DNA from: Candidatus Amesbacteria bacterium
GTDB lineage: Bacteria > Patescibacteriota > Microgenomatia > CAZETR01 > Amesbacteraceae
Reading direction: 5' to 3'
DNA: 64,000 bases
Assembly: GCA_963736875.1 (NCBI GenBank)
Contig: CAVTQH010000002.1
Location: forward strand, 5,294-69,293
A program made the position numbers and the translations under genes. Below are positions 33,866-61,240 of this stretch, in pieces; positions within the stretch are counted from its first letter, which is position 1, and every line of letters begins with the position of its first letter. The notes beneath the pieces were generated by a model that did not search any database, was not told the DNA's origin, and saw only the letters and a list, made by a program, of their open reading frames with translations.

Positions 33866-34115
33866 CCTTGTTAGTAATCGAATATTCCACCTGCTCCGGA
33901 GGGGTTCTGGTTATTGCATAATAGTAAAAAGCCCCGGCAATAATTACCAATAAAAGCATGAATTCACGGGCAAAAATCAACACCAGTCCGACTAAAATAC
34001 CCAATACCACCAATACCGACCGTGTTTGTTCCTCTGCCGGTTTATAAGGCCTGCTCTTGGCCTTCCAGGAAAGCAGCACTTTCTCCTGCTCCACCCGGGG
34101 TAGTTCATCTGCCAT
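33723..34115 (-). CDS. bPH-domain membrane protein, N-terminal part (frameshifted)
   Basis: Charged N-terminus, two TM helices, EYSITNKGDKSIR bPH-like start. After ~aa 90 it degenerates into VVYVVGVVKVVVGGKAG. Overlaps 33602..33865 by 143 nt in another frame. Confidence 0.4.
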   Translation of the reverse strand: MADELPRVEQEKVLLSWKAKSRPYKPAEEQTRSVLVVLGILVGLVLIFAREFMLLLVIIAGAFYYYAITRTPPEQVEYSITNKGDKSIRPVVYVVGVVKVVVGGKAGDQVIGTGVKNRGNGEILSAGGGE

Positions 34116-34179
34116 GTTTTAAATATAGCACAAATACTCCGCTCTCTTAAATGTTATAATTTTGAAGCTAAATCCATCA

Positions 34180-34270
34180 GGAAGGGTCGCATAGTGGCCT
34201 AGTGCGGAGGTCTTGAAAACCTCTACCCGATGCTCACGTCGGGTCGCGAGTTCGAATCTCGCCCCTTCCG
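34180..34270 (+). tRNA. tRNA-Ser(UGA)
   Basis: GGAAGGG...GAGGT-CTTGAAA-ACCTC, long variable arm, GCGAG-TTCGAAT-CTCGC, CCCTTCC-G. Confidence 0.85.
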
Positions 34271-34391
34271 CACCAACTTTCAGTTGCGAAGAAAGAGACC
34301 GGATAACAAAGTATTGCTAGCCAACGCACACCATCCCGCCCCTTTCACACACAACCCCACAGGTCAACTTCTTTCTTTCTGGTATCAACAG

Positions 34392-34479
34392 CGGAGGAGG
34401 TGGGATTCGAACCCACGTGAGCCTTGCAGCTCAGGAGTTTAGCAAACTCCCCGAATGGACCAGACTATCGGACTCCTCC
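34392..34479 (-). tRNA. tRNA-Ser(GCU)
   Basis: Minus strand GGAGGAG...GGAGT-TTGCTAA-ACTCC, long variable arm, GTGGG-TTCGAAT-CCCAC, CTCCTCC-G. Confidence 0.85.
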
Positions 34480-35466
34480 CTGACCTCTCAAAAGTCTGGG
34501 GTTGTGGGTACCAATAACTCGAAGGTACCTCTCTACCTCACTCTGATTATACAACCATACCTGCTTATTCTTCGTGTTTGAAATCACTTTCGGAGTCATA
34601 TCTAGATTCTCCAGAACCCTAGTCACAAATTCCAGTAGTGGAACCGACCTATTACTAAAACAAATCTTTAAATATCTGTATTCCTTATTGTTAACCTTGT
34701 ATTTGTGCACAAAAACTCCCCCATCAGTATCCATTAACCCCCTCACACAAGCCATTTTATATTCATGTCTTTCTTCAATCCAACTCGGAACTCCAACCTG
34801 CTGTTTGACTTTATTTCCCACTTTTAAGCCCAGTTCAACCAAATATTCAACCAGCTTCTTACCGCTACAAAAAATGACATTGGCCTTACAGTCTTTCCTT
34901 TTAGAAAACGGGGGTACAAAATTAAAAAGCCTACTTATCAACCCCACAACAAAACCCAAATACTCCTTATCGGCCTCACTATTCAAAGTTATACATACCT
35001 GACTCTGTGTAATCCCACCATCGCCCAATAAAATCCCCACAAACTCAGCCAATTCTGCACTTCTAACCCTCAAAAAGTTAAACTCCCTAGCCCGAGGGAT
35101 TATCCCTCTCTCGCGCAGAATCGCCAAAGTCTTCGCTCCACCCGCCCTTCTCCCTTCTAAAGTAGCAAAACTCCCATGCTTTCTATAGCAAGCCCATCCC
35201 CCCAACTTCCCCTTAAAACTCTTGTCCTCCATCCACCTCCTCCTTAAAACCCCAAGCTCTTCAGGTAACACTACCCCAAATCTCTCACTCAAAAGCACCG
35301 CCGCACCCAAACTCATATTCAACTGACCCCTTCTCCAGTCTCGATAACTCCTCCCTACAACGCCGGCCATCGCTGCCAACTCTTCACACTTCAGTCCACT
35401 TTTTAGCTCAATGTCTAACAAAAACTTCCTCTGTTTCCCCTCTCCAAACTTCACTCTTGCTTGCAT
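34465..35466 (-). CDS. free-standing double-motif LAGLIDADG homing-endonuclease-like protein with N-terminal HTH
   Basis: Two LAGLIDADG-type motifs, ILLGDGGIT and LMDTDGGVF, about 100 aa apart; N-terminal helix-turn-helix-like segment. The 3' end overlaps the tRNA-Ser(GCU) 5' end by ~15 nt. Confidence 0.6.
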   Translation of the reverse strand: MQARVKFGEGKQRKFLLDIELKSGLKCEELAAMAGVVGRSYRDWRRGQLNMSLGAAVLLSERFGVVLPEELGVLRRRWMEDKSFKGKLGGWACYRKHGSFATLEGRRAGGAKTLAILRERGIIPRAREFNFLRVRSAELAEFVGILLGDGGITQSQVCITLNSEADKEYLGFVVGLISRLFNFVPPFSKRKDCKANVIFCSGKKLVEYLVELGLKVGNKVKQQVGVPSWIEERHEYKMACVRGLMDTDGGVFVHKYKVNNKEYRYLKICFSNRSVPLLEFVTRVLENLDMTPKVISNTKNKQVWLYNQSEVERYLRVIGTHNPRLLRGQGGVR

Positions 35467-35514
35467 ACCTATTCCATACCCATCCTAACAAAACCCGAAC
35501 ATTAAATCAACTGT

Positions 35515-36198
35515 TCACCGCGCCAGTACCAATCCCCAGACAGATTTTACCCCGCCCTTTTTCAATACCCTGGCACACTCGTTCATTGTCGCTCCGGTAG
35601 TCCACACGTCATCCACCAGTAAAACAGTCTTTGGTAATTGATTTTTAGTCTTTAGTTTGAAAGCATCCTTCATTGCATCCAATCTTTGTGCCCTGTCTCT
35701 TCCCACCTGTCTTCCTGTATCTCTGACTCTTAATAGTAAATTTTTCATCTCCAGCGACCAGTGACTGGCGACCAATCGGCCGATTACTTCTGCCTGATTA
35801 AATCCCCTTTCTTTTTCCCTTTTCGGATACAGGGGTACCGGTACAACTACCGGTTTTCTTTCCACAAAACCATTCAGACCGGCATATTCCGGTATTTCAC
35901 TCACCCGATCATTTACATCCCTTAAAAGCTCTCCCAGGTAATCGTAATAAAACCGGTGTTTCGCCTGCTTGATAAGTTTTCTGGCTATCCCCTCGTATGC
36001 CCAAAAACAGGTCAATCCTTCCATCCCGTACGGCTCCCGGCAATATTTATGTCTCAGCCCATACCTGCTGCCCCGCCGGCACTGGGGACAAATCTGCTCT
36101 TCTTCCCACAATCCCACCTCACATTTCTCACACACATAGCCTCCGATTTTCCCGCATCCCACGCATTTTTTTGGATATAAAACATCCAATAAGTTCAT
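35515..36198 (-). CDS. comF: ComF/GntX-family phosphoribosyltransferase (competence protein ComFC-like)
   Basis: N-terminal zinc-finger cysteines CVGCG...CEKC...CPQCRR; C-terminal PRTase motif VLLVDDVWTTGATMNE. Confidence 0.75.
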   Translation of the reverse strand: MNLLDVLYPKKCVGCGKIGGYVCEKCEVGLWEEEQICPQCRRGSRYGLRHKYCREPYGMEGLTCFWAYEGIARKLIKQAKHRFYYDYLGELLRDVNDRVSEIPEYAGLNGFVERKPVVVPVPLYPKREKERGFNQAEVIGRLVASHWSLEMKNLLLRVRDTGRQVGRDRAQRLDAMKDAFKLKTKNQLPKTVLLVDDVWTTGATMNECARVLKKGGVKSVWGLVLAR

Positions 36199-36264
36199 GT
36201 GTCAACTTTACTCCCTCCAAACCTTCTGCTCCAGGCTGGATTATGATATAATACAGGCTATATT

Positions 36265-36650
36265 GGGGATGACGGGTATCGCCAGATAAGCACCTTGAAA
36301 TTTCGGCAAGCCGAGCTTGAATCACGCTCGTAAAACAGATTCAAACCAAAGTGCTGATTTAAAAGCACAAGTGAAAGGTTTTTTAGCTAGTCTAAATCCT
36401 TTTACCCAGACTCGCCCCGCGTACGTTTTTAACGCTTAAGCTGGGGTGATCCGGCACCTTAAATTTGCGTCCTTAATCGCAGTTTAAAGTGAAAACCTAA
36501 TTAAGGTGCTCTCCAAAAGATTATGGTTAGTCTCATTGGGGAAAAGATAATTAACCGCCAGCCGTTAGGAGCTTTATCCTAAACAAGCTTGTAACAAACC
36601 GAAATCCGAGACTTATTTGCACGAGGGTTCAACTCCCTCCATCTCCACCA
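36265..36650 (+). ncRNA. ssrA: tmRNA (transfer-messenger RNA)
   Basis: 5' GGGGATGACGGG... and 3' ...GAGGGTTCAACTCCCTCCATCTCC-A-CCA form a tRNA-Ala-like acceptor/T-arm. smpB is encoded immediately downstream. Candidate tag frame begins at a GCA codon ~100 nt in and ends at TAA 36436-36438. Confidence 0.75.
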
Positions 36651-37360: not shown

Positions 37361-37798
37361 TTATTTCTCTTCCCTCTCCAGATCTCTCTTTTTTATCTTC
37401 TCCCTTTTCTCATACTTTCTTTTCCCCCGGGCCAGCGCCAGTTCAATCTTTACATAATTACTTTTGGTATACATCGCCGTCGGCACCAACATTCGCCCTG
37501 ATTGCTTCATTTTAGACTGTAAGGCAATTATTTCTTTTTGATGCAGTAAAAGTTTTCTGATTCTTTTCGGATCATAGTTTGTATTATCCGCGTGTTTGTA
37601 AGGATAAATATGCAAATTTATCACAAACATTTCATTCTGACCTTTAAACCTGGCACTCTGTGTCTTCACGTGGGCATTTTCCATATCCACCTGACCCAGC
37701 TTCGCCGACTTGACTTCCGCTCCGGTTAATTCAATCCCCGCTTCAATCCGCTCTCCCAGTTCATAATCAAACCTGGCTTTTTTGTTTATCACCTTCAT
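37361..37798 (-). CDS. smpB: SsrA-binding protein
   Basis: MKVINKKARFDYELGERIEAGIELTGAEVKS is a SmpB N-terminus; ATGA overlap with the upstream gene stop; adjacent to ssrA. Confidence 0.85.
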   Translation of the reverse strand: MKVINKKARFDYELGERIEAGIELTGAEVKSAKLGQVDMENAHVKTQSARFKGQNEMFVINLHIYPYKHADNTNYDPKRIRKLLLHQKEIIALQSKMKQSGRMLVPTAMYTKSNYVKIELALARGKRKYEKREKIKKRDLEREEK

Positions 37799-39690
37799 AT
37801 TTTTATTTTCCAGATTTTTCCTTCTCCCAATCCGTACATCCACCCCCCTTTCTCGTCCGCCGCCAGGTCTGCCATTTTTTCCAGACCGTCATTTACCCAT
37901 TGCTTCTCATACTTACCGTCTTTGCCAAGAATTACTATTCTCTTATTTTGCGGGTCCAGTATATACACTTTTTCACTCTCGTCGGTGGTAAAAACCACCG
38001 CTTTCTCCCCCCATGGCTTATCCATTCCCTCAATCGCCAAACCGTCATTTACCCCCCGGGTAAATTTAATAAGTTCTCCGGGTTTTACCATCCAGATGCT
38101 TCCGTCTATTGCCATACTCATAACCCCCTTTAATTTTTCTCCTCCTTCACCGTCAGCCAGCCAGGGTTGTCTTAAACCGTATCCTCCGGTTTTGGCTGCG
38201 TACCTCCATATTTGGCCCGATCCTTCGTCTAAAAGGTATATATTCCCGGCAAATACTTTCATATCGGCAATATTTCCCCAGCCCTCATCCGCTTCTACTT
38301 TAACTTTTGCATCCCCCACCTCGGATATCCCTTTTTCAGCCAAAACAAATATTTTATCCGGATATGTAGCGACAAGCACCGCCCCTTTCCATCCCTCTCC
38401 TCCGGCAATTACTTTCCCCGATCCCGACTTTTGATCCACCTCCACCAACCTCCCCCCCGTTTTATCCAACACCACCAGTTTCCCCTCTTCCAATGCTATC
38501 TTTTCCCCCTTCATCCCTTCCCGCACCAAACTTAAATCCACCAGTTCATTCAATTCCGCTGTTATTATCCCCGCCGCTTCCTGCCACACCTGATCCCATT
38601 CCGCGTTAATTCCCGCAATCCTGGAGTCTTTTACTCCCTCCGGTTTTAGCTGCCCCAGTCCGTTTTTAATTTCCCCCAGAAGCTGCCTGCTCCGGGAAGG
38701 ATTTAAGGCAATCATCGCTTTAGCCTCATTAAAATCAAATACCAGTTTCTCAATCTGAGTTTCCTGCAGGCTTTCCTTTTGCGTTTTCTGCCGCAGCCAC
38801 AACTGACCCATTCCCGCCATCAAAAGCAAGACCGCTAAAAAAAACACCCCCAAATACATCATTCTTTTCCGTTGCTCCTGTTTATCCCCGTGCCGGATAT
38901 AAATCCTTCCTCTTACTCCCTCCAGTTTTCTTTTCAGAAAAACCCATCTCGCCTCTTTCTTTTCCTCTATCCTGCTTTCTTCCGGCGCTTTTTCTTCCTC
39001 CGCCTCTTTTTCCTCTTCTTTTTCAGTTACAGACAATTTGTCATTAATTTTCTGAATTTTTACTATTACTCCCGCCTCTCCCCCTTTTCTTTCGCTTCCC
39101 CGCTGTACGGCAGCCAGCATATCGACAGCCGCCTCCATCTCCTCTCCCGCGGTAGCCACTGCCGCCCGTAAAAGCCCGTCCGGCACTCCTGAAAAAAAGC
39201 TTTTATTCCCCAATACCACCATTTCACTCTCTTCCCCTCTTCCGCTGAAAGCCGCTTCTTTCTCTCTTTCTTCCTCTGCTCTAACCAGCCACCCCTGCTT
39301 TTCTGCTTGATTCTCCCCTTCCGCAGGCCGGCTTACCCATACCCCCACTCCCCCGCCCGCCACGATGTAAACAAACTCTCCCGCCAAAACCACCCCTCCG
39401 ATTTCTACCCCCTCAAATTCTCTTCTTACGCTCCCTATGGCATTTTTTAACACTATAAAAGCCTCTCCCGTCTCCTCTCCGTAATACAGCTCATGCAGCC
39501 GGGCCAATACTTCCCGGCCCGCCTGTACCATCTCTACCTGTTCAGTTCCCTCGGAAGCTTCCATCCCCACCACCGCCACCAGCCGGCCTCTTTTAGAAAG
39601 TTTCTCTTCTCCCTCCGGGGTAAAATCATAGACCTGAGCCCAAGCATTTTGTCCCAATTTCCCCACTAGTTTTCCCGCCACGGCATCCAT
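37795..39690 (-). CDS. hypothetical membrane protein with Glu/Lys-rich low-complexity region and C-terminal beta-propeller-like repeats
   Basis: Central EKEEEKEAEEEKAPEE tract, one TM helix, and a C-terminal region with repeated (V/I)xxLDxxGxxxxxxD blades. Confidence 0.4.
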   Translation of the reverse strand: MDAVAGKLVGKLGQNAWAQVYDFTPEGEEKLSKRGRLVAVVGMEASEGTEQVEMVQAGREVLARLHELYYGEETGEAFIVLKNAIGSVRREFEGVEIGGVVLAGEFVYIVAGGGVGVWVSRPAEGENQAEKQGWLVRAEEEREKEAAFSGRGEESEMVVLGNKSFFSGVPDGLLRAAVATAGEEMEAAVDMLAAVQRGSERKGGEAGVIVKIQKINDKLSVTEKEEEKEAEEEKAPEESRIEEKKEARWVFLKRKLEGVRGRIYIRHGDKQEQRKRMMYLGVFFLAVLLLMAGMGQLWLRQKTQKESLQETQIEKLVFDFNEAKAMIALNPSRSRQLLGEIKNGLGQLKPEGVKDSRIAGINAEWDQVWQEAAGIITAELNELVDLSLVREGMKGEKIALEEGKLVVLDKTGGRLVEVDQKSGSGKVIAGGEGWKGAVLVATYPDKIFVLAEKGISEVGDAKVKVEADEGWGNIADMKVFAGNIYLLDEGSGQIWRYAAKTGGYGLRQPWLADGEGGEKLKGVMSMAIDGSIWMVKPGELIKFTRGVNDGLAIEGMDKPWGEKAVVFTTDESEKVYILDPQNKRIVILGKDGKYEKQWVNDGLEKMADLAADEKGGWMYGLGEGKIWKIKI

Positions 39691-40695: not shown

Positions 40696-42477
40696 CTATT
40701 TTTTCTCGATATTAAACAGTCCGGATTTTAATGCTAATGCTCCGGGTGCCCGCAAATTAAACCCTTTTTTAAAATTCGCTCCCGAAATTGCCACTTCCCC
40801 TCTGTTGGTAGTCAGTATCACCCGGCCGGTCACCCCGCTCCTGTCATGCTCCACCCGGACTGCGGAAACACTGGTTACCCGGCCTCCGTATTTGTCCGCC
40901 TCCTCTGCCATCCGGGATTTCGACCAGGGATTATCGCTTCCTCCCCAACAACTCCGGACATCCTCCGGAAAAACTCCGCTGATATCCCCGCCCGCCGCAA
41001 CCACTATCGCCGCATTCACCATATCCGCAAATTCCGCTTCGGACAGCCACGGGTGGCTTCTTCCGCAGGTCTTCCCGCTTCTTGATTTGTACCATCCTTT
41101 ATAAAACCAGGGGCTTCCGCCCTTTACTTCCCAGGCTCCGTCCGCCCACCTCGTCCAGTCCGAAGTTGTATCCCAAAATCCCCCGGCTGTATGTCCCAGA
41201 CTGGAAGAACTTTGCTGGTAACCTCCCGAAGTACTGGCATACCAGGCATTCACCACTTCATTTGAGTCATTGCCTACCAATATTTTCCCGCGGGTTTCAG
41301 ACACCGCCTGGGCCCACAGCCCGGGATTGTCCGCTTTACTCGATTTCCACACCTGGCAAGCCTCGGTCACGCAGATCGAGCTTTTCACCGACTGGCTCCC
41401 CATCCGCCACCCGGTATAAGCCAGGGCATAGCTTCTGGCCGCAATTGCCTGGGCTTTTAATGCTTCCATTCCTCCCTCACTTCCCCAGACTGTCGGCATT
41501 TCCGCAATCCCCTTCATATATCTGTCCTCAAATGCCATATTTCCCGCAGTGGTTCTCATGGTTATTCCCGTATTTACTTCCGCAATTCTCACATTCCCGT
41601 AATAATCTTTCAGAATCTGTTCATAGTTTTGGCCCGCCTTTGCCCGGCCGAATGCTCCGTACTGGCTCATCCCTTTAAAGTGCGGAGCCCCGAAAGAAAA
41701 CATCGCAAATGCCGGTGAAAATCCCGGATTGTAGCCGGGTCTGGCTGCCGGATCATCGGCCAGTGGCACATCCCCTACCGAAGTCGTAAATGTCCCCGTT
41801 TTCTCTGCCAAAAGTTCCTGTTGCCTGGCGGTTAATGCCGAAATCTTTCCCCCCAGGTCCGCTTCATAACGACTCGCTTTCGCTACTTCCCCGGCCAGCC
41901 ACTTTTCCTGCTTATCTGTTTTTTCCTTCAACAAAGCCAGGCTGGTTTTCTGTGCCGTCAGTGTCCGGGTCTGTTCATCCAGTTCTTTGATTTCCCCGGC
42001 CAAAGCTTCAATCAGTCCCTGGTCCATCAAAGTTAATCTTTTCCGGTATTCCATTTCCCTGAAAAATCCGGCCGCGGAATCTGCCGAAAACAGCAGTTTC
42101 AAAATCGGCTGCTCCCTTCTCCTGACATAATCCTGTCTGATTTTGGCCGAGAGAAGTTCCTGTTTCACCCCCACTTTCACTTCTCTTTCAAAAATTCCCT
42201 TTTCCAGTTTCACCACCTGCCCCTCCAGTGATTTAATCTGTGTCTGCAGCCTTCCGATTTGTGCCTGCAGGGACTGCAGTGTCTGTTTATTGGCAGTGTT
42301 TGCTTTGGCTATCGCATCCAGTATCCCGCCGTATTTGCTGATACACCCGGATATTACCTGCGGATCCGTCAAACCCCCCGGATTATCACACTCTTCCGCT
42401 TTTACTATGCCGGTAAACATCACCAAACACCCCATCATAATCAACGTCACCGCTGACAAAACACCCCTCTTGGTCAT
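40696..42477 (-). CDS. secreted coiled-coil protein with C-terminal SpoIID/LytB domain
   Basis: Signal peptide; ~200-aa coiled coil (LQTQIKSLEGQVVKLEKG...); C-terminal FKGMSQYGAFGRAKAGQNYEQIL matches the SpoIID GMSQ.GA signature. Divergently transcribed from the pilin array. Confidence 0.65.
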   Translation of the reverse strand: MTKRGVLSAVTLIMMGCLVMFTGIVKAEECDNPGGLTDPQVISGCISKYGGILDAIAKANTANKQTLQSLQAQIGRLQTQIKSLEGQVVKLEKGIFEREVKVGVKQELLSAKIRQDYVRRREQPILKLLFSADSAAGFFREMEYRKRLTLMDQGLIEALAGEIKELDEQTRTLTAQKTSLALLKEKTDKQEKWLAGEVAKASRYEADLGGKISALTARQQELLAEKTGTFTTSVGDVPLADDPAARPGYNPGFSPAFAMFSFGAPHFKGMSQYGAFGRAKAGQNYEQILKDYYGNVRIAEVNTGITMRTTAGNMAFEDRYMKGIAEMPTVWGSEGGMEALKAQAIAARSYALAYTGWRMGSQSVKSSICVTEACQVWKSSKADNPGLWAQAVSETRGKILVGNDSNEVVNAWYASTSGGYQQSSSSLGHTAGGFWDTTSDWTRWADGAWEVKGGSPWFYKGWYKSRSGKTCGRSHPWLSEAEFADMVNAAIVVAAGGDISGVFPEDVRSCWGGSDNPWSKSRMAEEADKYGGRVTSVSAVRVEHDRSGVTGRVILTTNRGEVAISGANFKKGFNLRAPGALALKSGLFNIEKK

Positions 42478-42513: not shown

Positions 42514-42909
42514 ATGCGTCGTAAGCTGACTTTTTTATCTCTCAATATTCTCCTTTTTTGCCTGTCGTTTTTATACCCCCTCCCGGTATCTGCTGAATGG
42601 TGCACCCCCGGAAATCCCACCTCCGGAGTAAGAACCGCCTTGGGTTGTCTCCAAATTATTACTCCCACCGCTTTTATCTCCCAACTTCTTCCTTGGTTAA
42701 TGGGAATGGCAGGTCTGATTGCTCTTTTAACAATAGTCTATGCTGGTTTCCTTATAATTACCGCTGGTGGTGATCCTAAAAAAATTACCGCCGGAAAAGA
42801 AATTATCTTCACTTCGATAACCGGTCTCGTTTTTATTGCTTTAACTGTTCTGTTACTTAATTTTATCGGGGTGAGAATCCTTCAGTTGGGTCCTGAAGGA
42901 TTCCATTAA
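42514..42909 (+). CDS. VirB2/TrbC-like pilin paralog 1
   Basis: Signal/TM1, loop ITAGGDPKKITAGKEII, TM2; the same architecture recurs in the next nine genes. Confidence 0.6.
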   Translation: MRRKLTFLSLNILLFCLSFLYPLPVSAEWCTPGNPTSGVRTALGCLQIITPTAFISQLLPWLMGMAGLIALLTIVYAGFLIITAGGDPKKITAGKEIIFTSITGLVFIALTVLLLNFIGVRILQLGPEGFH

Positions 42910-42924
42910 CTAAAAAACAATATT

Positions 42925-43221
42925 ATGCACCTGGCTCAGCTTTCCCTCCCGTCCCCATCATCAGTCTTCACTGATTGGTATACTTTGCCATCCGTGCTGG
43001 CCGGCCGTATCCTCATGTACGCCATCCCGCTTGCCGGCATTTATTTCTTCGTCAGACTGCTGACCGCCGGTTTTTCAATGATGTCCAGCCAGGGTGATCC
43101 GGCCAAAATTCAGACAGCTCAAAGCGTCATCACTAATTCACTATTAGGCCTATTAATAGTTATCACCGTTTATTTTATTGTCCAGATTGTTCAATATATT
43201 ACCGGCATTAATCTTATATGA
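42925..43221 (+). CDS. VirB2/TrbC-like pilin paralog 2
   Basis: TM1 - SSQGDPAKIQTAQSVITNSLLGLLIV - TM2. Confidence 0.55.
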   Translation: MHLAQLSLPSPSSVFTDWYTLPSVLAGRILMYAIPLAGIYFFVRLLTAGFSMMSSQGDPAKIQTAQSVITNSLLGLLIVITVYFIVQIVQYITGINLI

Positions 43222-43284
43222 AAAGTTGGCGTATCACCACATATTATTTTCTTTTATCTATTTCTTTTACACCCCCCCCACATT

Positions 43285-43605
43285 ATGCCGTTTAATATCG
43301 ACGGAATTTTCATCGACCATCCCAATGCCAGAAGCTTCTCGGGTAATGATATTGGTCAGGTCATTTCAGCGCTTCTACCCAATGCCATAATTATTGCCGG
43401 TGTCTTTTTCTTTCTGTTGATTATCTATGGTGGTTTCCAGTTAATCGTCTACGGAGGCCAGAATAACAGCCCGCAACGGGTTTCCCAGTCAAGAAACATG
43501 ATTACTTACGGACTCATCGGCTTCTTGCTAGTTGTCTCTGCCTATTTTATACTACAAATAATCCAGTACGTTACCGGAATTAACTTTATTAACACTCCCA
43601 TATAA
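43285..43605 (+). CDS. VirB2/TrbC-like pilin paralog 3
   Basis: TM1 - VYGGQNNSPQRVSQSRNMITYGLIGFLLV - TM2. Confidence 0.55.
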   Translation: MPFNIDGIFIDHPNARSFSGNDIGQVISALLPNAIIIAGVFFFLLIIYGGFQLIVYGGQNNSPQRVSQSRNMITYGLIGFLLVVSAYFILQIIQYVTGINFINTPI

Positions 43606-43611
43606 AATAGA

Positions 43612-43971
43612 ATGCTTGGCATCTTCGGCGACATCCTCAACCCATACCGTCCGGCTGGAATTAATGTTCCCACATACAGTGGTAGTACCCAAGGTCAGGG
43701 CTTAATTATTATCCTTACCAACCTTGTCCGTCTGGCTATGGTTCTAGCCGGTATCTACACCTTAATCAATATTATTCTGGCCGGTTACGGATTCTTAAGC
43801 GCCGGCGGAGACCCCAAAGCAATTCAAAAATCCCAGGAAAGAATTTGGCGCTCTGTTTTGGGTTTGGTTATCGTTGTCGGTTCAATAGTTCTTGCCAGTG
43901 TCATAGGTTATATTCTCTATGGAAGCTCCGGATGGAACTTACTGATTAGTCCCCGATTATATTCTCCCTGA
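43612..43971 (+). CDS. VirB2/TrbC-like pilin paralog 4
   Basis: TM1 - LSAGGDPKAIQKSQERIWRSVLGLVIV - TM2. Confidence 0.55.
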   Translation: MLGIFGDILNPYRPAGINVPTYSGSTQGQGLIIILTNLVRLAMVLAGIYTLINIILAGYGFLSAGGDPKAIQKSQERIWRSVLGLVIVVGSIVLASVIGYILYGSSGWNLLISPRLYSP

Positions 43972-43979
43972 TCAAAATT

Positions 43980-44345
43980 ATGTCTCCCCTTCTTGCCGCC
44001 CAAACTACCATCGGAAACATCACCGGTATCGGACCATACGGTACCCCTCCTGGACCTGCTTCTGCTATTCAGTATTTCACGGGGATTATTTCAACTATCA
44101 TCGGGCTTTTAACCATCATTGCCGGTTTGTGGTTCATGATTCAGATAATACTCGGCGGTCTTCGTTGGATTTCTTCGGGTGGCGACAAACAAGCTAACCA
44201 GGATGCTCAAAAGCGCATTACCAACGCCCTGATTGGTATCGTCATTGTTATTTTTGCCTACGCCTTCAATGGCCTTGTGGGTCAGATTTTCGGATTGGAA
44301 ACAATAGACGTTGGCGGTTTAATTTTTAACAACATTCGTCCTTAA
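43980..44345 (+). CDS. VirB2/TrbC-like pilin paralog 5
   Basis: TM1 - ISSGGDKQANQDAQKRITNALIGIVIV - TM2. Confidence 0.55.
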   Translation: MSPLLAAQTTIGNITGIGPYGTPPGPASAIQYFTGIISTIIGLLTIIAGLWFMIQIILGGLRWISSGGDKQANQDAQKRITNALIGIVIVIFAYAFNGLVGQIFGLETIDVGGLIFNNIRP

Positions 44346-44348
44346 AAC

Positions 44349-44702
44349 ATGTATTCACGTCTTTTAGCTCAGGGTATTCCCATTATTAATCCCGCCATAA
44401 ATACGCGTATTGGTATTTTTGCCAACGTTTCCAACAGTGGTGGAGCCATTCAATCCCTGCTTCGGATACTCATAAACCTCGCCTTGGGTGTTTCCGGTCT
44501 CTATTTTTTCTTCACTCTCATCCTCGGAGGATATGCCTTTATTACAGCCGGCGGAGACAAAGAAGCCGTCCAAAAGGCTACCGCTCGAATCCGTAACGCT
44601 TTTATCGGTATAATTGTCGTCTTTTCTACTTATGTTATCGTCTATGTCGTCGAAACTCTCTTTGGCATCAATATCAGGTTGATTAATCTCCCCAATGTCT
44701 AG
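44349..44702 (+). CDS. VirB2/TrbC-like pilin paralog 6
   Basis: TM1 - ITAGGDKEAVQKATARIRNAFIGIIVV - TM2. Confidence 0.55.
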   Translation: MYSRLLAQGIPIINPAINTRIGIFANVSNSGGAIQSLLRILINLALGVSGLYFFFTLILGGYAFITAGGDKEAVQKATARIRNAFIGIIVVFSTYVIVYVVETLFGINIRLINLPNV

Positions 44703-45048
44703 AATTATGTTAAAACTGATAGCGCAAGCCGATACTGTCACCGTCCTGAGCAACAATCCCAATTACGCCGCCATTGAGTTGCTTAGACCATCTTGGTATA
44801 TCAGAACAGCTCTGAATCTCCTCCTGGGTGCAGCCGGTGTGGCCGCTTTTATATTCCTTCTTATGGGCGGAATTCAATGGATCATGGCAGGCGGAGATAA
44901 AGATGCTTTGGACAAAGCCAGAAAGAAAGTCACCCAGGCCTTAATTGGTTTGGTAATCGTCTTTTCCTCCTATGTCATCCTCTATATCATCCGCGCTTTG
45001 TTCAATGTTAACCTCATTCAGTTTACCATAAGAAATCTGGGTGGATAA
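44695..45048 (+). CDS. VirB2/TrbC-like pilin paralog 7
   Basis: TM1 - IMAGGDKDALDKARKKVTQALIGLVIVFSSYVILYII - TM2; near-identical to paralogs 8 and 9. Confidence 0.6.
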   Translation: MSRIMLKLIAQADTVTVLSNNPNYAAIELLRPSWYIRTALNLLLGAAGVAAFIFLLMGGIQWIMAGGDKDALDKARKKVTQALIGLVIVFSSYVILYIIRALFNVNLIQFTIRNLGG

Positions 45049-45124
45049 TCCGGATAACACTGTCCCATTTAACGCTCCTGTCTTGTTGCTTGGTTCAAAT
45101 TGTTATAAACTGGTTTTTACCTGC

Positions 45125-45517
45125 ATGAAACGTTTTTCGATATCATACTTTGCCGCACTCATCCTGCTTTCACTGATTGTCCCCTCTTCGGTTTTTGCCG
45201 GTGTTATTATTAATCTCCAGGATCCAAGCAGTCCTTACAGAAACATCTACAATCTTCGTCCGTCGGCATACGCCAGAACCGCTATCAACCTGCTTTTGGG
45301 TTTTGCTGGTGTTCTGGCTTTTCTCTACCTCCTCTGGGGTGGAATTCAATGGATTACGGCAGGCGGTGACAAAGATGCTTTGGACAAAGCCCGCAAACGG
45401 ATTACCCAGGCTCTTATCGGTTTGGCCATCGTCTTCTCCGTTTATGCTCTCCTCTATATCATCCGCGTTCTCTTCGGTATCAATCTCATTCAGGTGGTCA
45501 TCAATAACATCAGTTAA
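45125..45517 (+). CDS. VirB2/TrbC-like pilin paralog 8
   Basis: Start re-chosen at MKRFSISYFAALILLSL (ATG 45125). ITAGGDKDALDKARKRITQALIGLAIVFSVYALLYII. Confidence 0.6.
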   Translation: MKRFSISYFAALILLSLIVPSSVFAGVIINLQDPSSPYRNIYNLRPSAYARTAINLLLGFAGVLAFLYLLWGGIQWITAGGDKDALDKARKRITQALIGLAIVFSVYALLYIIRVLFGINLIQVVINNIS

Positions 45518-45555
45518 TCTGTGCTATACTTTCCTCGAAAGGTGGTGAGTTTATA

Positions 45556-45975
45556 GTGAAAATTCAAAAACTTCTCTCTTATGGAGGGGCTTTGGCCACA
45601 GTTTTGGCCCTCAACCCCTCTTCCGTTTTGGCTCAGGGGGCCCCGTTGGCTCCTGACACGGCCTCGATTTTCAACGTCGACTCCACCCGTTTCGGTATGC
45701 TGATGGGCTATACCCCGTCAATGTTTTTAAGAACTCTCTTAAATGTTCTTTTGGGTGTAGCTGGTGTTGCTTCATTCATCATCCTTTTATGGGGTGGTCT
45801 GCAATGGATTCTGGCTGGTGGAGATAAAGAAGGCACTGAAAAAGCCCGCAAAAAGATTACTGCGGCTCTTATCGGTTTGGCCATCGTCTTCTCCGCATAC
45901 GCTTTGCTGTATATCCTCAGGGCTCTGTTTAACGTCGACCTTATTCAGGTTGAACTTCGTCAGATCGGTACCTGA
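45556..45975 (+). CDS. VirB2/TrbC-like pilin paralog 9
   Basis: ILAGGDKEGTEKARKKITAALIGLAIVFSAYALLYIL; signal peptide MKIQKLLSYGGALATVLALNPSSVLA. Confidence 0.6.
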   Translation: MKIQKLLSYGGALATVLALNPSSVLAQGAPLAPDTASIFNVDSTRFGMLMGYTPSMFLRTLLNVLLGVAGVASFIILLWGGLQWILAGGDKEGTEKARKKITAALIGLAIVFSAYALLYILRALFNVDLIQVELRQIGT

Positions 45976-46035
45976 TGATAAAAGGCAAATTGCCAAAATT
46001 ACTACCCCGGTTCTTGCCGGGGTAGTTTTTTTGTC

Positions 46036-46359
46036 TTGTTTGGCTTATATTTATACTCAAGCATGACCCCTCCTTCAATTCTTAGTAATCTTTCCTATGT
46101 CTTAGCCGCTGGCATCTTACGCTCGGCTATCGGTTTGGTCGGTGTTGCTTTTATTATTATGTTGGTGTTCAGTGGTTATAACTACATCAGCGCCGGCGGT
46201 AACAAGGAAGCCCTGATCAAAGCTCAGCACTCCTTCACATATGCTTTTATCGGACTGATTATCGCTTTATCAGCATGGATTATTGTCAGCATGGTCGGTC
46301 GTTTCGTTGGTGTTAACTTCCGTGTTTTCTCAGTCTGTATTACCCCGGGTTGTATATAG
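46036..46359 (+). CDS. VirB2/TrbC-like pilin paralog 10
   Basis: TM1 - ISAGGNKEALIKAQHSFTYAFIGLIIA - TM2. Confidence 0.55.
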   Translation: MFGLYLYSSMTPPSILSNLSYVLAAGILRSAIGLVGVAFIIMLVFSGYNYISAGGNKEALIKAQHSFTYAFIGLIIALSAWIIVSMVGRFVGVNFRVFSVCITPGCI

Positions 46360-56131: not shown

Positions 56132-56799
56132 ATCCCCAAATCCATACCCGGACTCAGGACCATCTCGACATCGACGACATTATTAACGATATTATTATTT
56201 TAAAAGACGGGTCAGCCGCTCTGGTTCTCCAAGTCAGTGCCGTCAATTTCGGCCTGCTTTCGGAAAAAGAGCAGGATGCCACCATCTATGCTTATGCCCA
56301 GCTTTTAAACTCCCTCACTTTCTCCATCCAGATTGTGATTATCAGCAAACGCAAGGATATTTCAGTCTACCTGGATAAACTTGATGCTTATCTGGCTCAA
56401 ATCACTACCCCCAAACTAAAGGACGAGCTCTCAAAATACCGCGATTTCGTCAAAGCCATCGTCAATCAGGGAAATGTCCTTGATAAAAAATTCTATATCG
56501 TTATTCCCTTCAGCTCCATGGAGTTGGGTTTGGGTTCTTCCCTCAAGTCTCTCGGTAACCCCAATGCAAAATCCACCGTTCCCAAAGAATATCTTGTCGA
56601 CCGAGCAGCCACCAACCTCGCTCCCAAACGGGATCATCTTTTCAGGCTTCTGGCGCGTATCGGTCTGAAAGGCCATCAGTTAACCTCGTCCGAGCTTCTT
56701 CAGTTGTTCTTCGATATCTATAATCCGAACTGGATCGGTACCCGGGTTACTCTTCCCCATTCATCTGAAATTTTACCTAAAGCCGAAGAAAAAATATGA
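56128..56799 (+). CDS. VirB4/TraC-like N-terminal domain protein (separate ORF)
   Basis: IIILKDGSAALVLQVSAVNFGLLSEKEQDATIYAYAQLLNSL resembles the VirB4 N-terminal domain; ATGA overlap with the following ATPase ORF. Confidence 0.45.
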   Translation: MNPQIHTRTQDHLDIDDIINDIIILKDGSAALVLQVSAVNFGLLSEKEQDATIYAYAQLLNSLTFSIQIVIISKRKDISVYLDKLDAYLAQITTPKLKDELSKYRDFVKAIVNQGNVLDKKFYIVIPFSSMELGLGSSLKSLGNPNAKSTVPKEYLVDRAATNLAPKRDHLFRLLARIGLKGHQLTSSELLQLFFDIYNPNWIGTRVTLPHSSEILPKAEEKI

Positions 56800-58649
56800 G
56801 TCTTCTTTCCCCCAAAAAATCCGCATCTCCCAAAACAGCGCCGGTTCAGCCTGAAAATAAAGAATCACCCCCCACTAAAGATTTAGCCCTGGCCAAAACC
56901 GTCAGGGACATCATTGCTCCCCAATCTCTGACTATTGATTTCAATACACTTAAAATTAACGAGTCATACTTTCGCAGTTTTTTTACCACCATCAACCGCC
57001 GCTTTGTTTCCAGTAACTGGCTTAGCTCCATCATTAACTTCGATCACTCCTTAAATATCTCCATGTTTATCTATCCGGTCGAAAGCAAATCCACTCTTGA
57101 TGACCTGCGCCGAAAAATAGCTGAAATGGAAGCCGAAATTAGTACCGATATGCAGCGCGGCCATGTGGTCGATCCGTCCACCCAGGCCAAGCTTGAAGAC
57201 GCCCTGTCTCTTCAGGATACATTAGTCAAAGGCATTGAACGTTTCTTCCAATTCTCGCTATATCTGACCATTCCCGCCGATTCTGCCTCGGAGCTGGAAA
57301 CTGTCAGTAAACAGGTATCAAGTAATCTTTCCTCTCTTCTGGTTTCCTCCATTCCCACTCTCCTGCAGCAGGCTGAGGGTTTCAAAAATACTCTCCCCAC
57401 CTGTATCGACCACCTCATGGTCACCCGCAACATGGATACTACTTCACTGGCAACCACTTTTCCTTTTACTTCATCCGAACTGACCAGCAATGAAGGTATT
57501 TTATACGGCATCAACCAGCACAACGGCAGCCTGGTTATTTTTGACCGGTTTACTCTTGAGAACGCCAACACTGTGGTTTTTGCCAAAGCGGGCGCCGGAA
57601 AATCTTATACCATCAAACTGGAAATTCTCCGTTCCCTGATGTTCGGAACTGAAATTATTGTCATCGATCCTGAAAATGAATATAAAACATTATGTGACGC
57701 CGTGGGTGGCGACTACATCAACTTTTCCTATAACTCCCAAAACCGGATCAATCCTTTTGATTTGTCTCTCCTTACTCAATACTCCGAAGAAAACGAGCTC
57801 AACCTTAAAATTCAGTCTCTTTTTTCCATGTTTAAGGTGATTATGGGTACCCTTTCTCCCACTGAAGAAGCTCTCCTTGACCGGGCAATAAATCAGGCTT
57901 ACAGAATGAAAGGTATTACCGCCGACCCTACTACTCAAAAACGCCCTCCTCCCCTCATGGAAGACCTGTACAAGTCCTTTATCGGTATGGAGGAGCCACT
58001 GGCCATCTCTCTGGCTGACCGCATTGAACGGTTCGTCAAAGGCAGCTTTACTGGCATCATAGACCAACCCAGTAATATTCAGATCAAAAACCAGTTTACG
58101 GTATTTTCAGTCCGTGATCTGGAAGACTCTTTAAAACCCATCGCCATTTTTCTTATTCTTGACTACATCTGGACCAAAATGCGCCGTGATCTCAAAAAGC
58201 GCATTCTGGTGGTTGATGAAGCCTGGTATCTCATGCGTTATCCGGATTCCGCTAATTTTCTTTACGGTGTGGCCAAAAGAGCCCGGAAATATTTCCTGGG
58301 ACTGACTACTATTACCCAGGATGTGGAAGACTTTTTAAATACCGATTTCGGCAAGGCTATTGTCACCAACTCTTCCATCCAGATTCTGATGAAGCAATCC
58401 CCTGCAGGAGTCGATAAAATCGCCCAGGTTTTCTATCTTTCCGAAGGAGAAAAACATCTTCTTTTAAGTGCCGGTGTGGGTGAAGGTCTCTTCTTTGCCG
58501 GCAATAACCACGTAGCCGTCCGCTTTGTTGCTTCACCGGATGAACATAAGTTGATTACCACCAAACCCTCGGAAATTCTTGCAAGGCAGCAAGCCCAAGC
58601 ATCCGCCAAAAATCCTCCCCGTCTAATTACCGAAACCGAAAAAGCATGA
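56796..58649 (+). CDS. VirB4/TrbE-like (DUF87) secretion ATPase, C-terminal ATPase domain
   Basis: Walker A VVFAKAGAGKSYT; VIDPENEY; Walker B RILVVDEAWYLM; GLTTITQDVEDF. Confidence 0.75.
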   Translation: MSLLSPKKSASPKTAPVQPENKESPPTKDLALAKTVRDIIAPQSLTIDFNTLKINESYFRSFFTTINRRFVSSNWLSSIINFDHSLNISMFIYPVESKSTLDDLRRKIAEMEAEISTDMQRGHVVDPSTQAKLEDALSLQDTLVKGIERFFQFSLYLTIPADSASELETVSKQVSSNLSSLLVSSIPTLLQQAEGFKNTLPTCIDHLMVTRNMDTTSLATTFPFTSSELTSNEGILYGINQHNGSLVIFDRFTLENANTVVFAKAGAGKSYTIKLEILRSLMFGTEIIVIDPENEYKTLCDAVGGDYINFSYNSQNRINPFDLSLLTQYSEENELNLKIQSLFSMFKVIMGTLSPTEEALLDRAINQAYRMKGITADPTTQKRPPPLMEDLYKSFIGMEEPLAISLADRIERFVKGSFTGIIDQPSNIQIKNQFTVFSVRDLEDSLKPIAIFLILDYIWTKMRRDLKKRILVVDEAWYLMRYPDSANFLYGVAKRARKYFLGLTTITQDVEDFLNTDFGKAIVTNSSIQILMKQSPAGVDKIAQVFYLSEGEKHLLLSAGVGEGLFFAGNNHVAVRFVASPDEHKLITTKPSEILARQQAQASAKNPPRLITETEKA

Positions 58650-58942: not shown

Positions 58943-61240
58943 ATGATCCCGACATCCGCCACTTCCACAACTGATCTTCTCCGAAATTACCAGCAGCCGG
59001 GACTGAAAGCCTTCAGCGCTATTCTTTCTCAAACATCACTCCCCCCCACCCAGGCAGCTAAATTATTAGAGCATTTGGATCAGAAAAACATTCTTTTTGT
59101 AGCCTATGCCATAGCTAAAAATTCTCTTGCCCCGGGTCAGGAAAAAGACCTGGATCGTGTAGCTCAAAACTTAATCCCTATCCTCCAGTCTGCTGTTGAT
59201 TTGTCCCAAAGAGAACTTAATCTCAGTCCTGAACAGGTGGTAAGTGTTCAGCAAAACTTGGGTGATCTTTCTCAAAAACCCGAAGAAACTAAAGAATTTT
59301 ATCAGCAGTTTGAAAAGGAATATCCAGAAGAGCAGACAAAGCGCCCGGAAAACTATGAATCTTCTCATGGAGGTTCAAACCCCTTATTGGATCACGTAAA
59401 AAATCAGGCAGATAAAGCTGTCAAAAAAAAGGTCAAGGAAATCTGGGAAAATTTTAAAAAATCTCCCACCGGTAAAACCGTTAAAACACCCCCAACCCCC
59501 GCACCTGCTCAGGGAGTTTCTACAACAGTGTTACCAACCACCGGAACTACGGTCACAATTTCAACCGGTGAAGACGCTGTTTTAGGCACCGCCGCTGCCG
59601 CGAAAGCTTTAACCGGGGTCCCACAAACAATTACCCGTATATCCCCGCTAAACATCAGCCTTCGTCCCACTCCCCCAATTCCAGTTTCAGGAGCTCCACC
59701 TCCTCCTGTAGGTGCAATTTCGGGAAAAATTGTTGGTTTTTCCGTAAACCCTCAAACCTCTTTATCAGGAATAATTCCTCGGGAATATATGTCCTTCGGA
59801 ATTCTCAAACAAATACCCGCAACTGAAGCAGTTAAAAACTTCGGACTGAACATGGCTTCGGAAGGAACTAAATTCTTTCAAATTACCGAAAAAGGGGCCA
59901 TGTTGGCTTCAAAAATACCCTCAATTGGGTCCTCTCTTGGTTCATATATTCCCGGCTCCGCCGGTATTACAACCCTAGTATCCACACCCACCAGCACCAT
60001 TGCTGTTTCTGGAATCAGTACTTCAGGAGGGGTTACTATTGGTACAGCAACCACAATAGGTACCACCGGACTGACCACTATTGGGACTACTGGACTCACC
60101 GCTGTAGGTACTACCACTGCCACAGCAGTAGGGACTACTGCTGTTACCACCACCGCCACAGCTGTAGGTACTACCGCTGTCACAACAGTGGGTACTGCCG
60201 CCGTTACCACAGCCGCCACAACCACAGCAGCTGCAACCACCGGTGTTGCTACAGGCGCAACTGTAGGAGCCGCCGCCGGTGGCCCGACTCCTGTAGCAAT
60301 TGTCACTGCAATAATCGGAGCCATTATTGGCTTGATCGCCGGTTTAATCCCAAGTATTTATAAAAAATTTAAGGATTATTTTGATGCTATAGTGGGTGCG
60401 ACTTTGGTTATAATCTTCGGTTCATTCGCTGGTTTGGGTTTTTTACCGGCACTGGCCCTTGGTGGTATGACAGGTGGTTTTATGGCTTTAACCAATACCT
60501 CAATTGTGGGTGCCATCTCCGGTCTTGGTAATTCTCTTGTTGATATTGCTAAGGGTGTCAGTGTCACCACGGCGGTTGCCTTTTTTTTAGCAGCAATTAT
60601 CCTTCCTGCTGTAGTCGCAATAATTATTTTCTTCATCAACACTGGGGGTTACGTCACCCCACAAGCTCCTGTTTCTTTCTTTGACCCTGGTGGAGGTTTT
60701 GCTGATCCCACAAGCTGCCCTATTTTGGGTGGTTATGTCACCTGGGGATCATATGACCCCACCAATGAAAATAGTGGTTCCGCCGGAGGACATGGTAGTA
60801 ATTCTTACTGGAGTGGATTAGCTGCTTGCTCATATGCTCTTCCCCAAAGCACTGGTTGTATGGGTCCAAACAGCAATCCCGCTAACATTTGTTATGGCGC
60901 TGGTAATCAATGTACTGAATATGGATACGCCGCGGATATTCACGCTGTCTCAGGCACCCCTGTCTATCTTCCACTCGTTGATGGTCAACCAGCAAACTGG
61001 AGTTGTCACCGTGCTTTTCAAAACCCTGGTGGAGCCGGTTTTACAATTTACTGCGATACAAGCGATGGCAATGTTCACCTGGTCCTTACCCACGTTAACG
61101 ACGCTTCTCCCCTGACCAACGTTCCGTCTGGAACTCAAGTGTCCACAATTGATTGGGATGCAAATCCCCATTTACATATGGAGGCTCAGGTGGGTGGTGT
61201 TTGGGTTAGACCTGAAAATTATTTTTGTGGTGGAACCTAA
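58943..61240 (+). CDS. membrane-associated M23 peptidase (cell-wall hydrolase candidate of the secretion locus)
   Basis: C-terminus YAADIHAVSGTPVYLP...NPHLHMEAQV = M23 HxxxD and HxH motifs. Central Thr-rich low-complexity tract (TTGLTTIGTTGLTAVGTTTATAVGTT...) followed by 2-3 TM helices; soluble N-terminal domain. Confidence 0.6.
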   Translation: MIPTSATSTTDLLRNYQQPGLKAFSAILSQTSLPPTQAAKLLEHLDQKNILFVAYAIAKNSLAPGQEKDLDRVAQNLIPILQSAVDLSQRELNLSPEQVVSVQQNLGDLSQKPEETKEFYQQFEKEYPEEQTKRPENYESSHGGSNPLLDHVKNQADKAVKKKVKEIWENFKKSPTGKTVKTPPTPAPAQGVSTTVLPTTGTTVTISTGEDAVLGTAAAAKALTGVPQTITRISPLNISLRPTPPIPVSGAPPPPVGAISGKIVGFSVNPQTSLSGIIPREYMSFGILKQIPATEAVKNFGLNMASEGTKFFQITEKGAMLASKIPSIGSSLGSYIPGSAGITTLVSTPTSTIAVSGISTSGGVTIGTATTIGTTGLTTIGTTGLTAVGTTTATAVGTTAVTTTATAVGTTAVTTVGTAAVTTAATTTAAATTGVATGATVGAAAGGPTPVAIVTAIIGAIIGLIAGLIPSIYKKFKDYFDAIVGATLVIIFGSFAGLGFLPALALGGMTGGFMALTNTSIVGAISGLGNSLVDIAKGVSVTTAVAFFLAAIILPAVVAIIIFFINTGGYVTPQAPVSFFDPGGGFADPTSCPILGGYVTWGSYDPTNENSGSAGGHGSNSYWSGLAACSYALPQSTGCMGPNSNPANICYGAGNQCTEYGYAADIHAVSGTPVYLPLVDGQPANWSCHRAFQNPGGAGFTIYCDTSDGNVHLVLTHVNDASPLTNVPSGTQVSTIDWDANPHLHMEAQVGGVWVRPENYFCGGT

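Follow-up and report, generated by a model that had tools for sequence, protein, structure and literature searches.

The 64,000-nucleotide stretch of a Candidatus Amesbacteria genome analysed here (contig CAVTQH010000002.1, positions 5,294 to 69,293; hereafter the window) encodes, at positions 42514–46359 of its + strand, ten consecutive pilin-like genes, which are designated W1 to W10 in their order along the window. The ten genes are members of the type IV secretion system (T4SS) pilin family PF18895, and comparisons with related loci show that the ten copies are not recent duplicates, but represent at least 7–8 ancient paralogue types, each occupying its own place in a fixed order. We hold this combination of family assignment and ordered orthogroups with high confidence. 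On balance, we also favor a broader explanation of the locus as the pilin array of a chromosomal, origin-proximal T4SS from a Microgenomatia/Amesbacteria-like Patescibacterium, whose product may be a heteromeric pilus.

Homology and shared architecture of the ten proteins

An earlier note on this DNA had described ten consecutive + strand open reading frames (ORFs) of 98–139 amino acids (aa) between 42514 and 46359, and all ten are indeed present, with the size range holding when the internal ATG at 45125 is taken as the start of W8. The spacing of 4–70 nucleotides (nt) given in that note comes close to the measured range, which extends from an overlap (-8 nt, W6/W7) to ~76–87 nt. A MAFFT alignment of the ten proteins (A1) confirms the proposed common architecture, with two hydrophobic helices separated by a loop. 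In full, the layout comprises a variable N-terminal tail, the first hydrophobic helix, a short basic loop, the second hydrophobic helix and a G[IV]N[LF]I-like tail. Five columns of A1 are invariant, namely the start methionine and four glycines. The loop motif that had been proposed as conserved, [AS]GGD[KP], is exact in seven of the ten copies, but is degenerate in W2 (SQGDP), W3 (YGGQNNSP) and W10 (AGGNK).

Unrelated small hydrophobic ORFs might come to resemble each other through chance or composition, and the hydrophobic composition of these proteins does yield many weak matches to membrane families with no relationship to them, DUF898 and Cyt_bd_oxida_II among others. However, a hidden Markov model (HMM) derived from A1 (the array HMM), when run against the window's 808 stop-to-stop ORFs (≥40 aa), recovered exactly the ten genes with E-values from 5.6e-30 to 1.3e-43, and matched no other ORF up to E = 10. 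The multiple alignment that the earlier note had proposed as a check, together with this search, therefore identifies the similarity as homology rather than shared composition. The glycines are moreover invariant in register, and a database search gave 293 homologues, with PF18895 present in 118 of 120 among the matches listed. On these grounds chance resemblance was ruled out, its probability being negligible. Pairwise local identity is 23–47% for most copies and 55–64% among W7–W9, and at the DNA level similarity within the array is confined to W7–W9, where a 220-nt stretch shows 67–75% identity.

Family assignment and relationship to VirB2

PF18895 ('Type IV secretion system pilin') matches all ten proteins, with eight of them scoring 28.5–40.4 bits, above the curated gathering cut-off of 26.6 bits. 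The two copies below this cut-off, W2 and W4, are tied to the remaining ones by the array profile (E = 3e-33 and 1e-32, respectively). These matches, along with PrgI/VirB3-like and VirB4-like genes downstream, bear out the original identification of VirB2/pilin-like genes belonging to a T4SS locus.

Membership of the canonical VirB2/TrbC family (PF04956; gathering cut-off 27.9 bits) is plausible. In an alignment of 83 sequences (A3), which combines the ten window paralogues with 73 homologues from a database search with W9, every sequence matches PF18895 and 36 of the 83 also match PF04956 at E<0.1, with a best E-value of 1.7e-5. For comparison, we used seven diverse annotated VirB2/TrbC proteins of the mating-pair formation type T (MPF_T) (A4); the Agrobacterium tumefaciens VirB2 sequence used as a query is 99% identical to genes annotated as 'pilin major subunit VirB2'. 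Profile-profile alignments of A1 and A3 with A4 using hhalign place the helices in register. VirB2 and the PF18895 family (A4 and A3) further share a layout consisting of A-x-A↓Q, ~8–25 residues, P-x-x-[MF]..., a helix and G-x-x-G, the canonical VirB2 cleavage site being represented in A4 by invariant A45, A47 and Q48. An AlphaFold2 model of W9, computed with A3, has a mean predicted local distance difference test (pLDDT) score of 76 and displays a signal-like helix at the N-terminus, then a linker of low confidence, a short helix at residues 43–50 and a hairpin of helices 54–87 and 91–125, with block-mean pLDDT values of ~89–96 over residues 61–120. A short helix followed by a hairpin is reportedly the arrangement of TraA and VirB2, the F-pilin and the T-pilin.

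An identity as pilins of type IV pili or (pseudo)pilins of type II secretion systems was also considered and rejected: the prepilin motif [KR]G↓[FM]T[LI][IV]E occurs in none of the ten proteins, and their first hydrophobic helix starts 20–55 residues into the sequence.

Ancient paralogue types and conservation of gene order

Related loci were gathered with the W7–9 group in a scan in which each species was represented by one genome, and the closest relatives proved to be metagenome-assembled genomes (MAGs) of Candidatus Amesbacteria (Microgenomates group). The comparison of copy number proposed in the earlier note was thereby carried out, and 61 loci of other species carry 5–13 tandem pilins where the contig is long enough. 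A ten-fold array, which that note had regarded as exceptional, is thus exceptional in relation to classical T4SSs, but not within the Patescibacteria, for which arrays of 2–11 genes have been published (PMC12102498). At least 13 tandem pilin ORFs are found on one Amesbacteria contig (L003, MEXR01000012.1, positions 2–4976), whose array runs off the contig start; this number exceeds the published maximum of 11, and the surplus lies in the W7-type group.

A particularly informative relative is the contig L001, which encodes a protein identical to W9. Its array likewise consists of ten pilin genes, and the best match of each window gene lies at the same position, with aa identities of 48, 49, 75, 73, 52, 53, 87, 78, 100 and 40% from W1 to W10. 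When pilins are assigned to their best window paralogue, the order W1, W2, W3, W4, W5, W6, (W7/8/9 group), W10 is seen in 21 of 21 Amesbacteria-like loci, and copy number in these varies in the W7–9 group alone, from 1 to 5 or more per locus. As an assignment-free test, we clustered 451 pilins from 63 loci by the Louvain method on normalised BLAST scores, and obtained communities with approximately one member per locus and narrow relative positions. The W1-type cluster has 47 members from 40 loci (mean relative rank 0.06), the W4-type cluster 49 members from 45 loci (0.30), the W5-type cluster 32 members from 31 loci (0.51), the W6-type cluster 20 members from 20 loci (0.63), the W7–9-type cluster 36 members from 14 loci (0.79) and the W10-type cluster 26 members from 26 loci (1.00, with a standard deviation of 0). 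Across genomes the paralogues group by position and not by genome, which is not the pattern of a recent amplification of the Bartonella/Anaplasma type. The ratio of nonsynonymous to synonymous divergence (dN/dS) between the window and L001 is 0.10–0.27 wherever dS is unsaturated, indicating purifying selection. Taken together, the ordered orthology, the one-member clusters and the type-specific motifs described below show that the ten are ancient subunit types, each of them conserved individually.

These results have a direct bearing on the earlier suggestion that the array reflects either antigenic or functional diversification of the pilus subunit, or a mixture of major and minor pilins. Ancient positional types in a fixed order favor a heteromeric set of specialized major and minor subunits, which fits much better, over interchangeable antigenic variants. 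The latter alternative holds that these are interchangeable major pilins serving antigenic or host-range variation, an idea put forward for virB2 paralogues in Bartonella and Anaplasma and also suggested for Patescibacteria (PMC12102498). It draws on the saturation of dS in W1–W8 and W10 as against 0.29 for the PrgI gene, i.e. pilins that are far more diverged between close relatives, on a mosaic of identities with an abrupt 98% tract at W9 that suggests allele exchange, on the variable N-terminal tails, which by analogy with TraA/VirB2 would sit on the pilus surface, and on the differing copy number of the W7–9 type between genomes. The one-to-one orthologues at the same position in all the related loci, the clusters with about one member per locus, the distinct conserved N-terminal motif of each type and the purifying selection argue against it. 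Moreover, a search within the array for long near-identical DNA repeats, whether left by recent duplication or capable of supporting gene conversion or cassette switching, found none, and there is one internal terminator only, with no sign of alternative promoters. Hence, we consider antigenic variation to be distinctly improbable as the explanation of the array.

Features of the individual types and their N-terminal leaders

The ten genes, all on the + strand, differ chiefly in their N-terminal regions. W1 (42514..42909; 131 aa; PF18895 40.4 bits), the first-position type, has a signal-peptide-like N-terminus (..PVSA↓EW) with a two-Cys segment, and transmembrane (TM)-like segments at residues 5–27, 53–87 and 95–126; its orthologues often bear long Cys-rich N-terminal extensions, and the type is marked by the signature G[IV][KR]TA[LI]GC. 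W2 (42925..43221; 98 aa; PF18895 17.7 bits) begins with the short leader MHLAQ, and its orthologues in 18 loci begin with M-x(0-3)-LAQ. W3 (43285..43605; 106 aa; 28.5 bits) has no signal peptide from its ATG, whereas its 75% identical orthologue in L001 possesses an intact one. The W3 ATG is preceded in frame by a signal-peptide-like relic (43222–43284; ..SPHIIFFYLFLLHPPHI), which has no ATG, GTG or TTG start and ends in an 8-C homopolymer (43270–43277); it could be the result of a lost start codon, or represent a non-canonical start or a slippage-prone tract. W4 (43612..43971; 119 aa; 18.9 bits) is characterized by the N-terminal motif FGxIxNP[FY] (MLGIFGDILNPY in W4 itself), with the signature of the type given as FGxIxNPF.

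W5 (43980..44345; 121 aa; 36.3 bits) starts with the leader MSPLLAAQ and has the sequence GIGPYG in place of the G[IV]GPLG signature of its orthologues. W6 (44349..44702; 117 aa; 35.3 bits), with the leader MYSRLLAQ and the motif NPA[IL]N, starts 3 nt past the stop codon of W5, which leaves no room for a longer leader. The W7–9 group opens with W7 (44695..45048; 117 aa; PF18895 30.3 bits, TrbC 17.8 bits), which shares its first 8 nt with the end of W6; it has 64% and 57% identity to W8 and W9, respectively, and a short leader ending in ..KLIAQ. W8 (45125..45517; 130 aa; 31.3 bits), whose ORF is open from a GTG at 45041, has a TM-like N-terminal segment resembling a signal peptide (MKRFS...SSVFA↓G). 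W9 (45556..45975; 139 aa; GTG start) scores 34.6 bits with PF18895, and the last-position type, W10 (46036..46359; 107 aa; 34.2 bits), which starts at TTG 46036 or ATG 46063, has two Cys residues in the C-tail, its type being marked by the N-terminal signature MPAK[IL]SxLE.

By inspection, the leaders of W2, W5, W6 and W7 are 4–11 residues long and end in LAQ or LAAQ (LIAQ in W7), while W3, W4 and W10 have no leader. A short leader of the form M-x(0-4)-[LI]-[LI]-A-Q replaces the signal peptide at 42925–44730, in W2, W5, W6 and W7, and in pilins of L001–L062. By a crude count, 91 out of 435 pilins from the loci have an LAQ-like tripeptide that starts at one of the first 10 positions, as compared with 8 out of 756 other ORFs from these loci having one in their first 12 residues. 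The full signal peptides of the W9-type proteins end in the same LAQ (..P.S.LA↓Q). The possibility that the short leaders are artefacts of start-codon choice was rejected for W5, W6 and many W2-type orthologues, in which the nearest upstream stop codon is only a few codons away; in W5 and W6 this stop is at most 10 codons upstream, and no ATG, GTG or TTG intervenes before the annotated start.

Expression signals of W9 and recombination in the array

W9 stands out from the other copies in several respects. It has an n-h-c type signal peptide (..SSVLA↓QG) and the only strong Shine-Dalgarno (SD) sequence of the array (AAAGGTGGTGA), and between it and W10 lies an intrinsic-terminator-like hairpin on the + strand (46001..46036, with the hairpin itself at 46001–46026), which has an 11-bp stem with 7 GC pairs followed by a T7 run. 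This hairpin is the best of the region, and is kept in L001 within a tract of 96–100% identity. W9 is also the most conserved copy, with 100% aa and 98% nt identity to its counterpart in L001. Because of its signal peptide, SD sequence, terminator, conservation and membership in the copy-number-variable group, W9 is the best candidate for the major subunit.

The highly similar tract extends from ~45490 to 46035 (L001 9330–9880), and its 96–100% nt identity spans the SD sequence, coding sequence and terminator of W9. At 46035 identity to L001 drops abruptly to below 50%, and upstream it is ~46–65% in the N-terminal half of W8 and 80–88% in W7. Correspondingly, dS between the window and L001 is 0.09 for W9, 0.29 for the PrgI gene, and ~1 or saturated for the other pilins. 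Either W9 was exchanged lately between the two lineages, or the other genes hold old divergent alleles. On either account, the array is a mosaic produced by recombination, with the W9 tract pointing to recombination or allele exchange.

A model for the products of the array

Under the model we propose, the hairpin subunits would insert in the cytoplasmic membrane with their basic GGD(K/P) loop in the cytoplasm and both termini outside. The loop is placed inside by the positive-inside rule, since five residues of the W9 loop (GGDKEGTEKARKK) are basic and the charge of both tails is close to neutral. The VirB4-like ATPase, together with PrgI/VirB3-like and VirB6-like components, would then extract and polymerise the subunits; in Agrobacterium, the action of VirB4 on VirB2 in extraction and polymerisation is well established. 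The product might be a heteromeric pilus or conduit directed towards the host cell, with the W9 type supplying the bulk (major) subunit and the remaining types serving as low-abundance, specialized minor, tip or base subunits. The W1 type, with its Cys-rich N-terminal extensions, would be the best candidate for a distal or adhesive subunit. We infer the topology, the assembly by VirB4, the heteromeric filament and the identity of the major subunit from the sequence features described above, and the heteromeric-pilus mechanism as such is put forward tentatively, at slightly less than an even chance.

A stronger version of this proposal would see the ten proteins as obligate, non-redundant parts of a single heteropolymeric filament or conduit, the composition and perhaps the assembly order of which are recorded in an order of genes that is maintained across Microgenomatia and outside them as well. 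The M-x(0-4)-L-L-A-Q leader, used by a subset of the subunits, would then mark a route of processing or insertion new for VirB2-type pilins, e.g. one in which the chain is cut ahead of Gln in the absence of a complete signal peptide, or one in which the N-terminal tail is exported independently of Sec. We regard this version as doubtful.

Several observations count against a pilus of the VirB2 type and against the role proposed for W9. PF04956 is matched by W7–W9 alone, in each case below threshold, with W9 the best at 19.8 bits (E = 9e-4). With the shallow profiles at hand (number of effective sequences, Neff, ~3), hhalign gave E-values of 0.081 for A3 and 0.21 for A1 against A4, neither of which is significant. 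A profile search of PDB sequences with A1 and A3 retrieved no VirB2, TraA or TrbC chain, and yielded just weak membrane-protein noise. Fold searches with the predicted W9 hairpin matched thousands of unrelated structures, all of them generic helical hairpins, and such searches therefore cannot discriminate a VirB2 fold. By inspection, an n-h-c type signal peptide is present in W1, W8 and W9 only, i.e. three of the ten copies. The array lies 9 kb from the T4SS core, with unassigned genes and one opposite-strand gene between them. The case for W9 as the major subunit is built on indirect signals, and SD sites are weak throughout this genome. Finally, no pilus made of these proteins has been observed in any Patescibacterium (PMC12857230).

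Some of these points could also be accommodated if the genes encode small, membrane-resident proteins with two TM segments, which contribute to the structure or the channel of the T4SS or of a different envelope machinery, with the Pfam name being a guess by analogy. The non-significant profile comparison with true VirB2 and the seven copies without a clear signal peptide are in keeping with this, as is the fact that monoderm T4SSs normally have no pilus (PMC12102498, PMC12857230). However, the homologues show consistent sub-threshold matches to TrbC/VirB2, which reach the E-value of 1.7e-5 noted above, the layout around the cleavage site is common to VirB2 and the PF18895 family, and the family co-occurs with VirB4 in 1948 assemblies (PMC12102498). 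A set of ten subunits with one well-expressed member also resembles a filament system. Accordingly, we consider permanent residence in the membrane unlikely, and retain a heteromeric pilus or conduit as the preferred interpretation.

Genomic context of the array

The array is situated ~9 kb upstream of a monoderm-type T4SS core, the PrgI/VirB3-like and VirB4-like genes of which lie 9–12 kb downstream of it. Directly following the array on the + strand (46402..49846) are genes for a secreted Cys-rich protein of 739 aa, with 28 Cys residues and a signal-peptide-like N-terminus, and for a downstream 316-aa ORF, neither of which has a Pfam match. The region corresponds to a single 1105-aa ORF in L001 (50–51% identity by tblastn), and is divided into ORFs of 739, 114 and 316 aa in the window. 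The next region (49910..51446, +) encodes a candidate VirB6/PrgH-like polytopic membrane protein, so named for its several TM-like segments, topology and position; its ORFs have no Pfam match. It too is split, into overlapping ORFs of 165 and 372 aa, where L001 has one ORF of 598 aa (tblastn to 13976–15136). The split ORFs of both regions may be due to frameshifts, either in pseudogenes or programmed, or to assembly errors. The opposite-strand gene between the array and the core (52014..55016, -) encodes a 1000-aa, highly charged E/K-rich protein, for which tblastn detected no similarity to the syntenic 1092-aa gene of L001 at E = 1e-5; it is extremely fast-evolving or of low complexity.

The core itself begins with a PrgI/VirB3-like membrane protein (55163..56131, +; PF12666 36.6 bits), which has a C-terminal CarboxypepD_reg/Ig-like domain (PF13620 43.7 bits) and is 93% identical to its L001 counterpart at the aa level. 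A 223-aa protein with no Pfam match (56128..56799, +) is translationally coupled, through overlapping start and stop codons, between this gene and that of the VirB4-like T4SS ATPase (56796..58649, +; PF19044 P-loop_TraG 102.7 bits, PF12846 AAA_10 45.2 bits). Directly 3' of the latter, a 765-aa protein with TM-like segments at ~443–572 (58943..61240, +) is, judging from its position, probably a membrane component of the T4SS. Among the window ORFs that were scanned, neither a relaxase nor a coupling protein could be recognised.

The right end of the window is occupied by dnaN (61778–62899, -) and a truncated dnaA (63125 to the window end, -), the proximity of which indicates that the locus is chromosomal and origin-proximal. 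GC skew is negative across all 64 kb and shows no switch, suggesting that the origin probably lies just beyond the window, in which case the + strand pilin and T4SS genes would be oriented head-on to replication. Upstream of the array are genes for a SpoIID-domain protein, SmpB, tmRNA, tRNAs, DnaG and sigma-70. These include a cluster of Ser and Arg tRNAs with the tmRNA (33269–36650; tmRNA at 36265–36650) and, nearby, SmpB (37361–37843); a LAGLIDADG endonuclease-like ORF (34465–35466, -) shares 15 nt with the 5' end of tRNA-Ser(gct). A Cys/NPGG-like motif recurs in the mature N-termini of the SpoIID-domain protein (40696–42477, -; AEECDNPGG...GC), the 739-aa protein (CCTNPGGRACG) and W1 (WCTPGNPTSG...GC), and may constitute a common N-terminal module of proteins secreted at this locus.

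Relationship to known arrays and implications

As a phenomenon, the pilin array is already known. Quinonero-Coronel et al. (2025) searched 3,035 Patescibacteria genomes with PF18895, PF04956 and other profiles, and reported 441 VirB2-like arrays with 2–11 genes each, distributed over 383 assemblies and commonest in Microgenomatia and Saccharimonadia, with a mean within-array identity of 25% and a maximum of 54% (PMC12102498). The same study found the Patescibacterial T4SS to be of the monoderm (MPF_FATA-like) type; a relaxase is usually lacking, and dnaA/dnaN are often close by. Southlakia cannot grow as an epibiont without the pilin series of its T4SS cluster (Wang et al. 2023; PMC10633639), and a 2025 review discusses whether the array might form the pilus of a T4SS of monoderm type (PMC12857230). 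The window is a typical case: like the PF18895 arrays of Southlakia epibionticum ML1 (SEML1_0006-0019 region) and Nanosynbacter lyticus TM7x ('Sec secreted array'), it has tandem divergent copies of the same family, the same monoderm-type neighbours (PrgI/VirB3 and VirB4) and proximity to dnaA/dnaN. It differs from them in no qualitative way, its ten copies lying towards the upper end of the published size range, and Microgenomatia are among the groups named as array-rich. The cited literature on Patescibacterial arrays does not mention a fixed order of paralogues, short LAQ leaders or expression signals of the W9 kind; the ordered orthogroups, the short leaders and the W9 mosaic are the modest additions made here. 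Many public MAG records with such arrays (L004-L007, L010, L013, L016, L022, L023, L039 and others) are titled Gammaproteobacteria, Pseudomonadales, Clostridia, Nevskiaceae or Nanoarchaeia, and these titles (e.g. 'uncultured Gammaproteobacteria', 'Nanoarchaeia') are evidently wrong taxonomic labels.

Among better-studied systems, canonical VirB2, TrbC and TraA (PF04956; exemplified by A. tumefaciens VirB2, RP4 TrbC and F TraA) resemble the window proteins in size, in their two helices with a short loop and in their VirB3/VirB4 partners. Some window copies also match their A-x-A↓Q signal-peptide end, and the PF04956 matches are weak. In contrast, the canonical systems usually have one such gene, operate in a diderm envelope with VirB1, VirB5 and VirB7-10, and have no GGD(K/P) loop. 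The virB2 paralogues of Bartonella and Anaplasma phagocytophilum are likewise several in a row in an obligately host-associated bacterium, but these have been interpreted as amplifications specific to a lineage that provide antigenic or host-interaction variation, whereas the types in the window are ancient and position-specific across many genera. The major and minor sets of type IV pili (PilA with FimU/PilVWXE) and type II secretion systems (GspG with GspHIJK) offer an analogy in logic only: an abundant subunit is encoded together with conserved, ordered, divergent paralogues of low abundance, but the family is unrelated, and the window proteins have neither the G↓F leader nor the N-terminal helix of the type IV pilus kind.

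Patescibacteria account for a large share of bacterial diversity, and apparently live attached to host cells. In the sole genetically tractable member the T4SS and its pilin series are essential, and the present locus is one more example that leaves this general picture unchanged. The comparative result does, however, narrow the hypotheses, in that the types are of ancient origin, occur as single copies and keep their order, and only one of them, which is well expressed, varies in copy number. This speaks against simple antigenic variation and for a structure made of multiple subunits. It also offers guidance to experimenters working on Saccharibacteria by singling out putative major and putative minor subunits.

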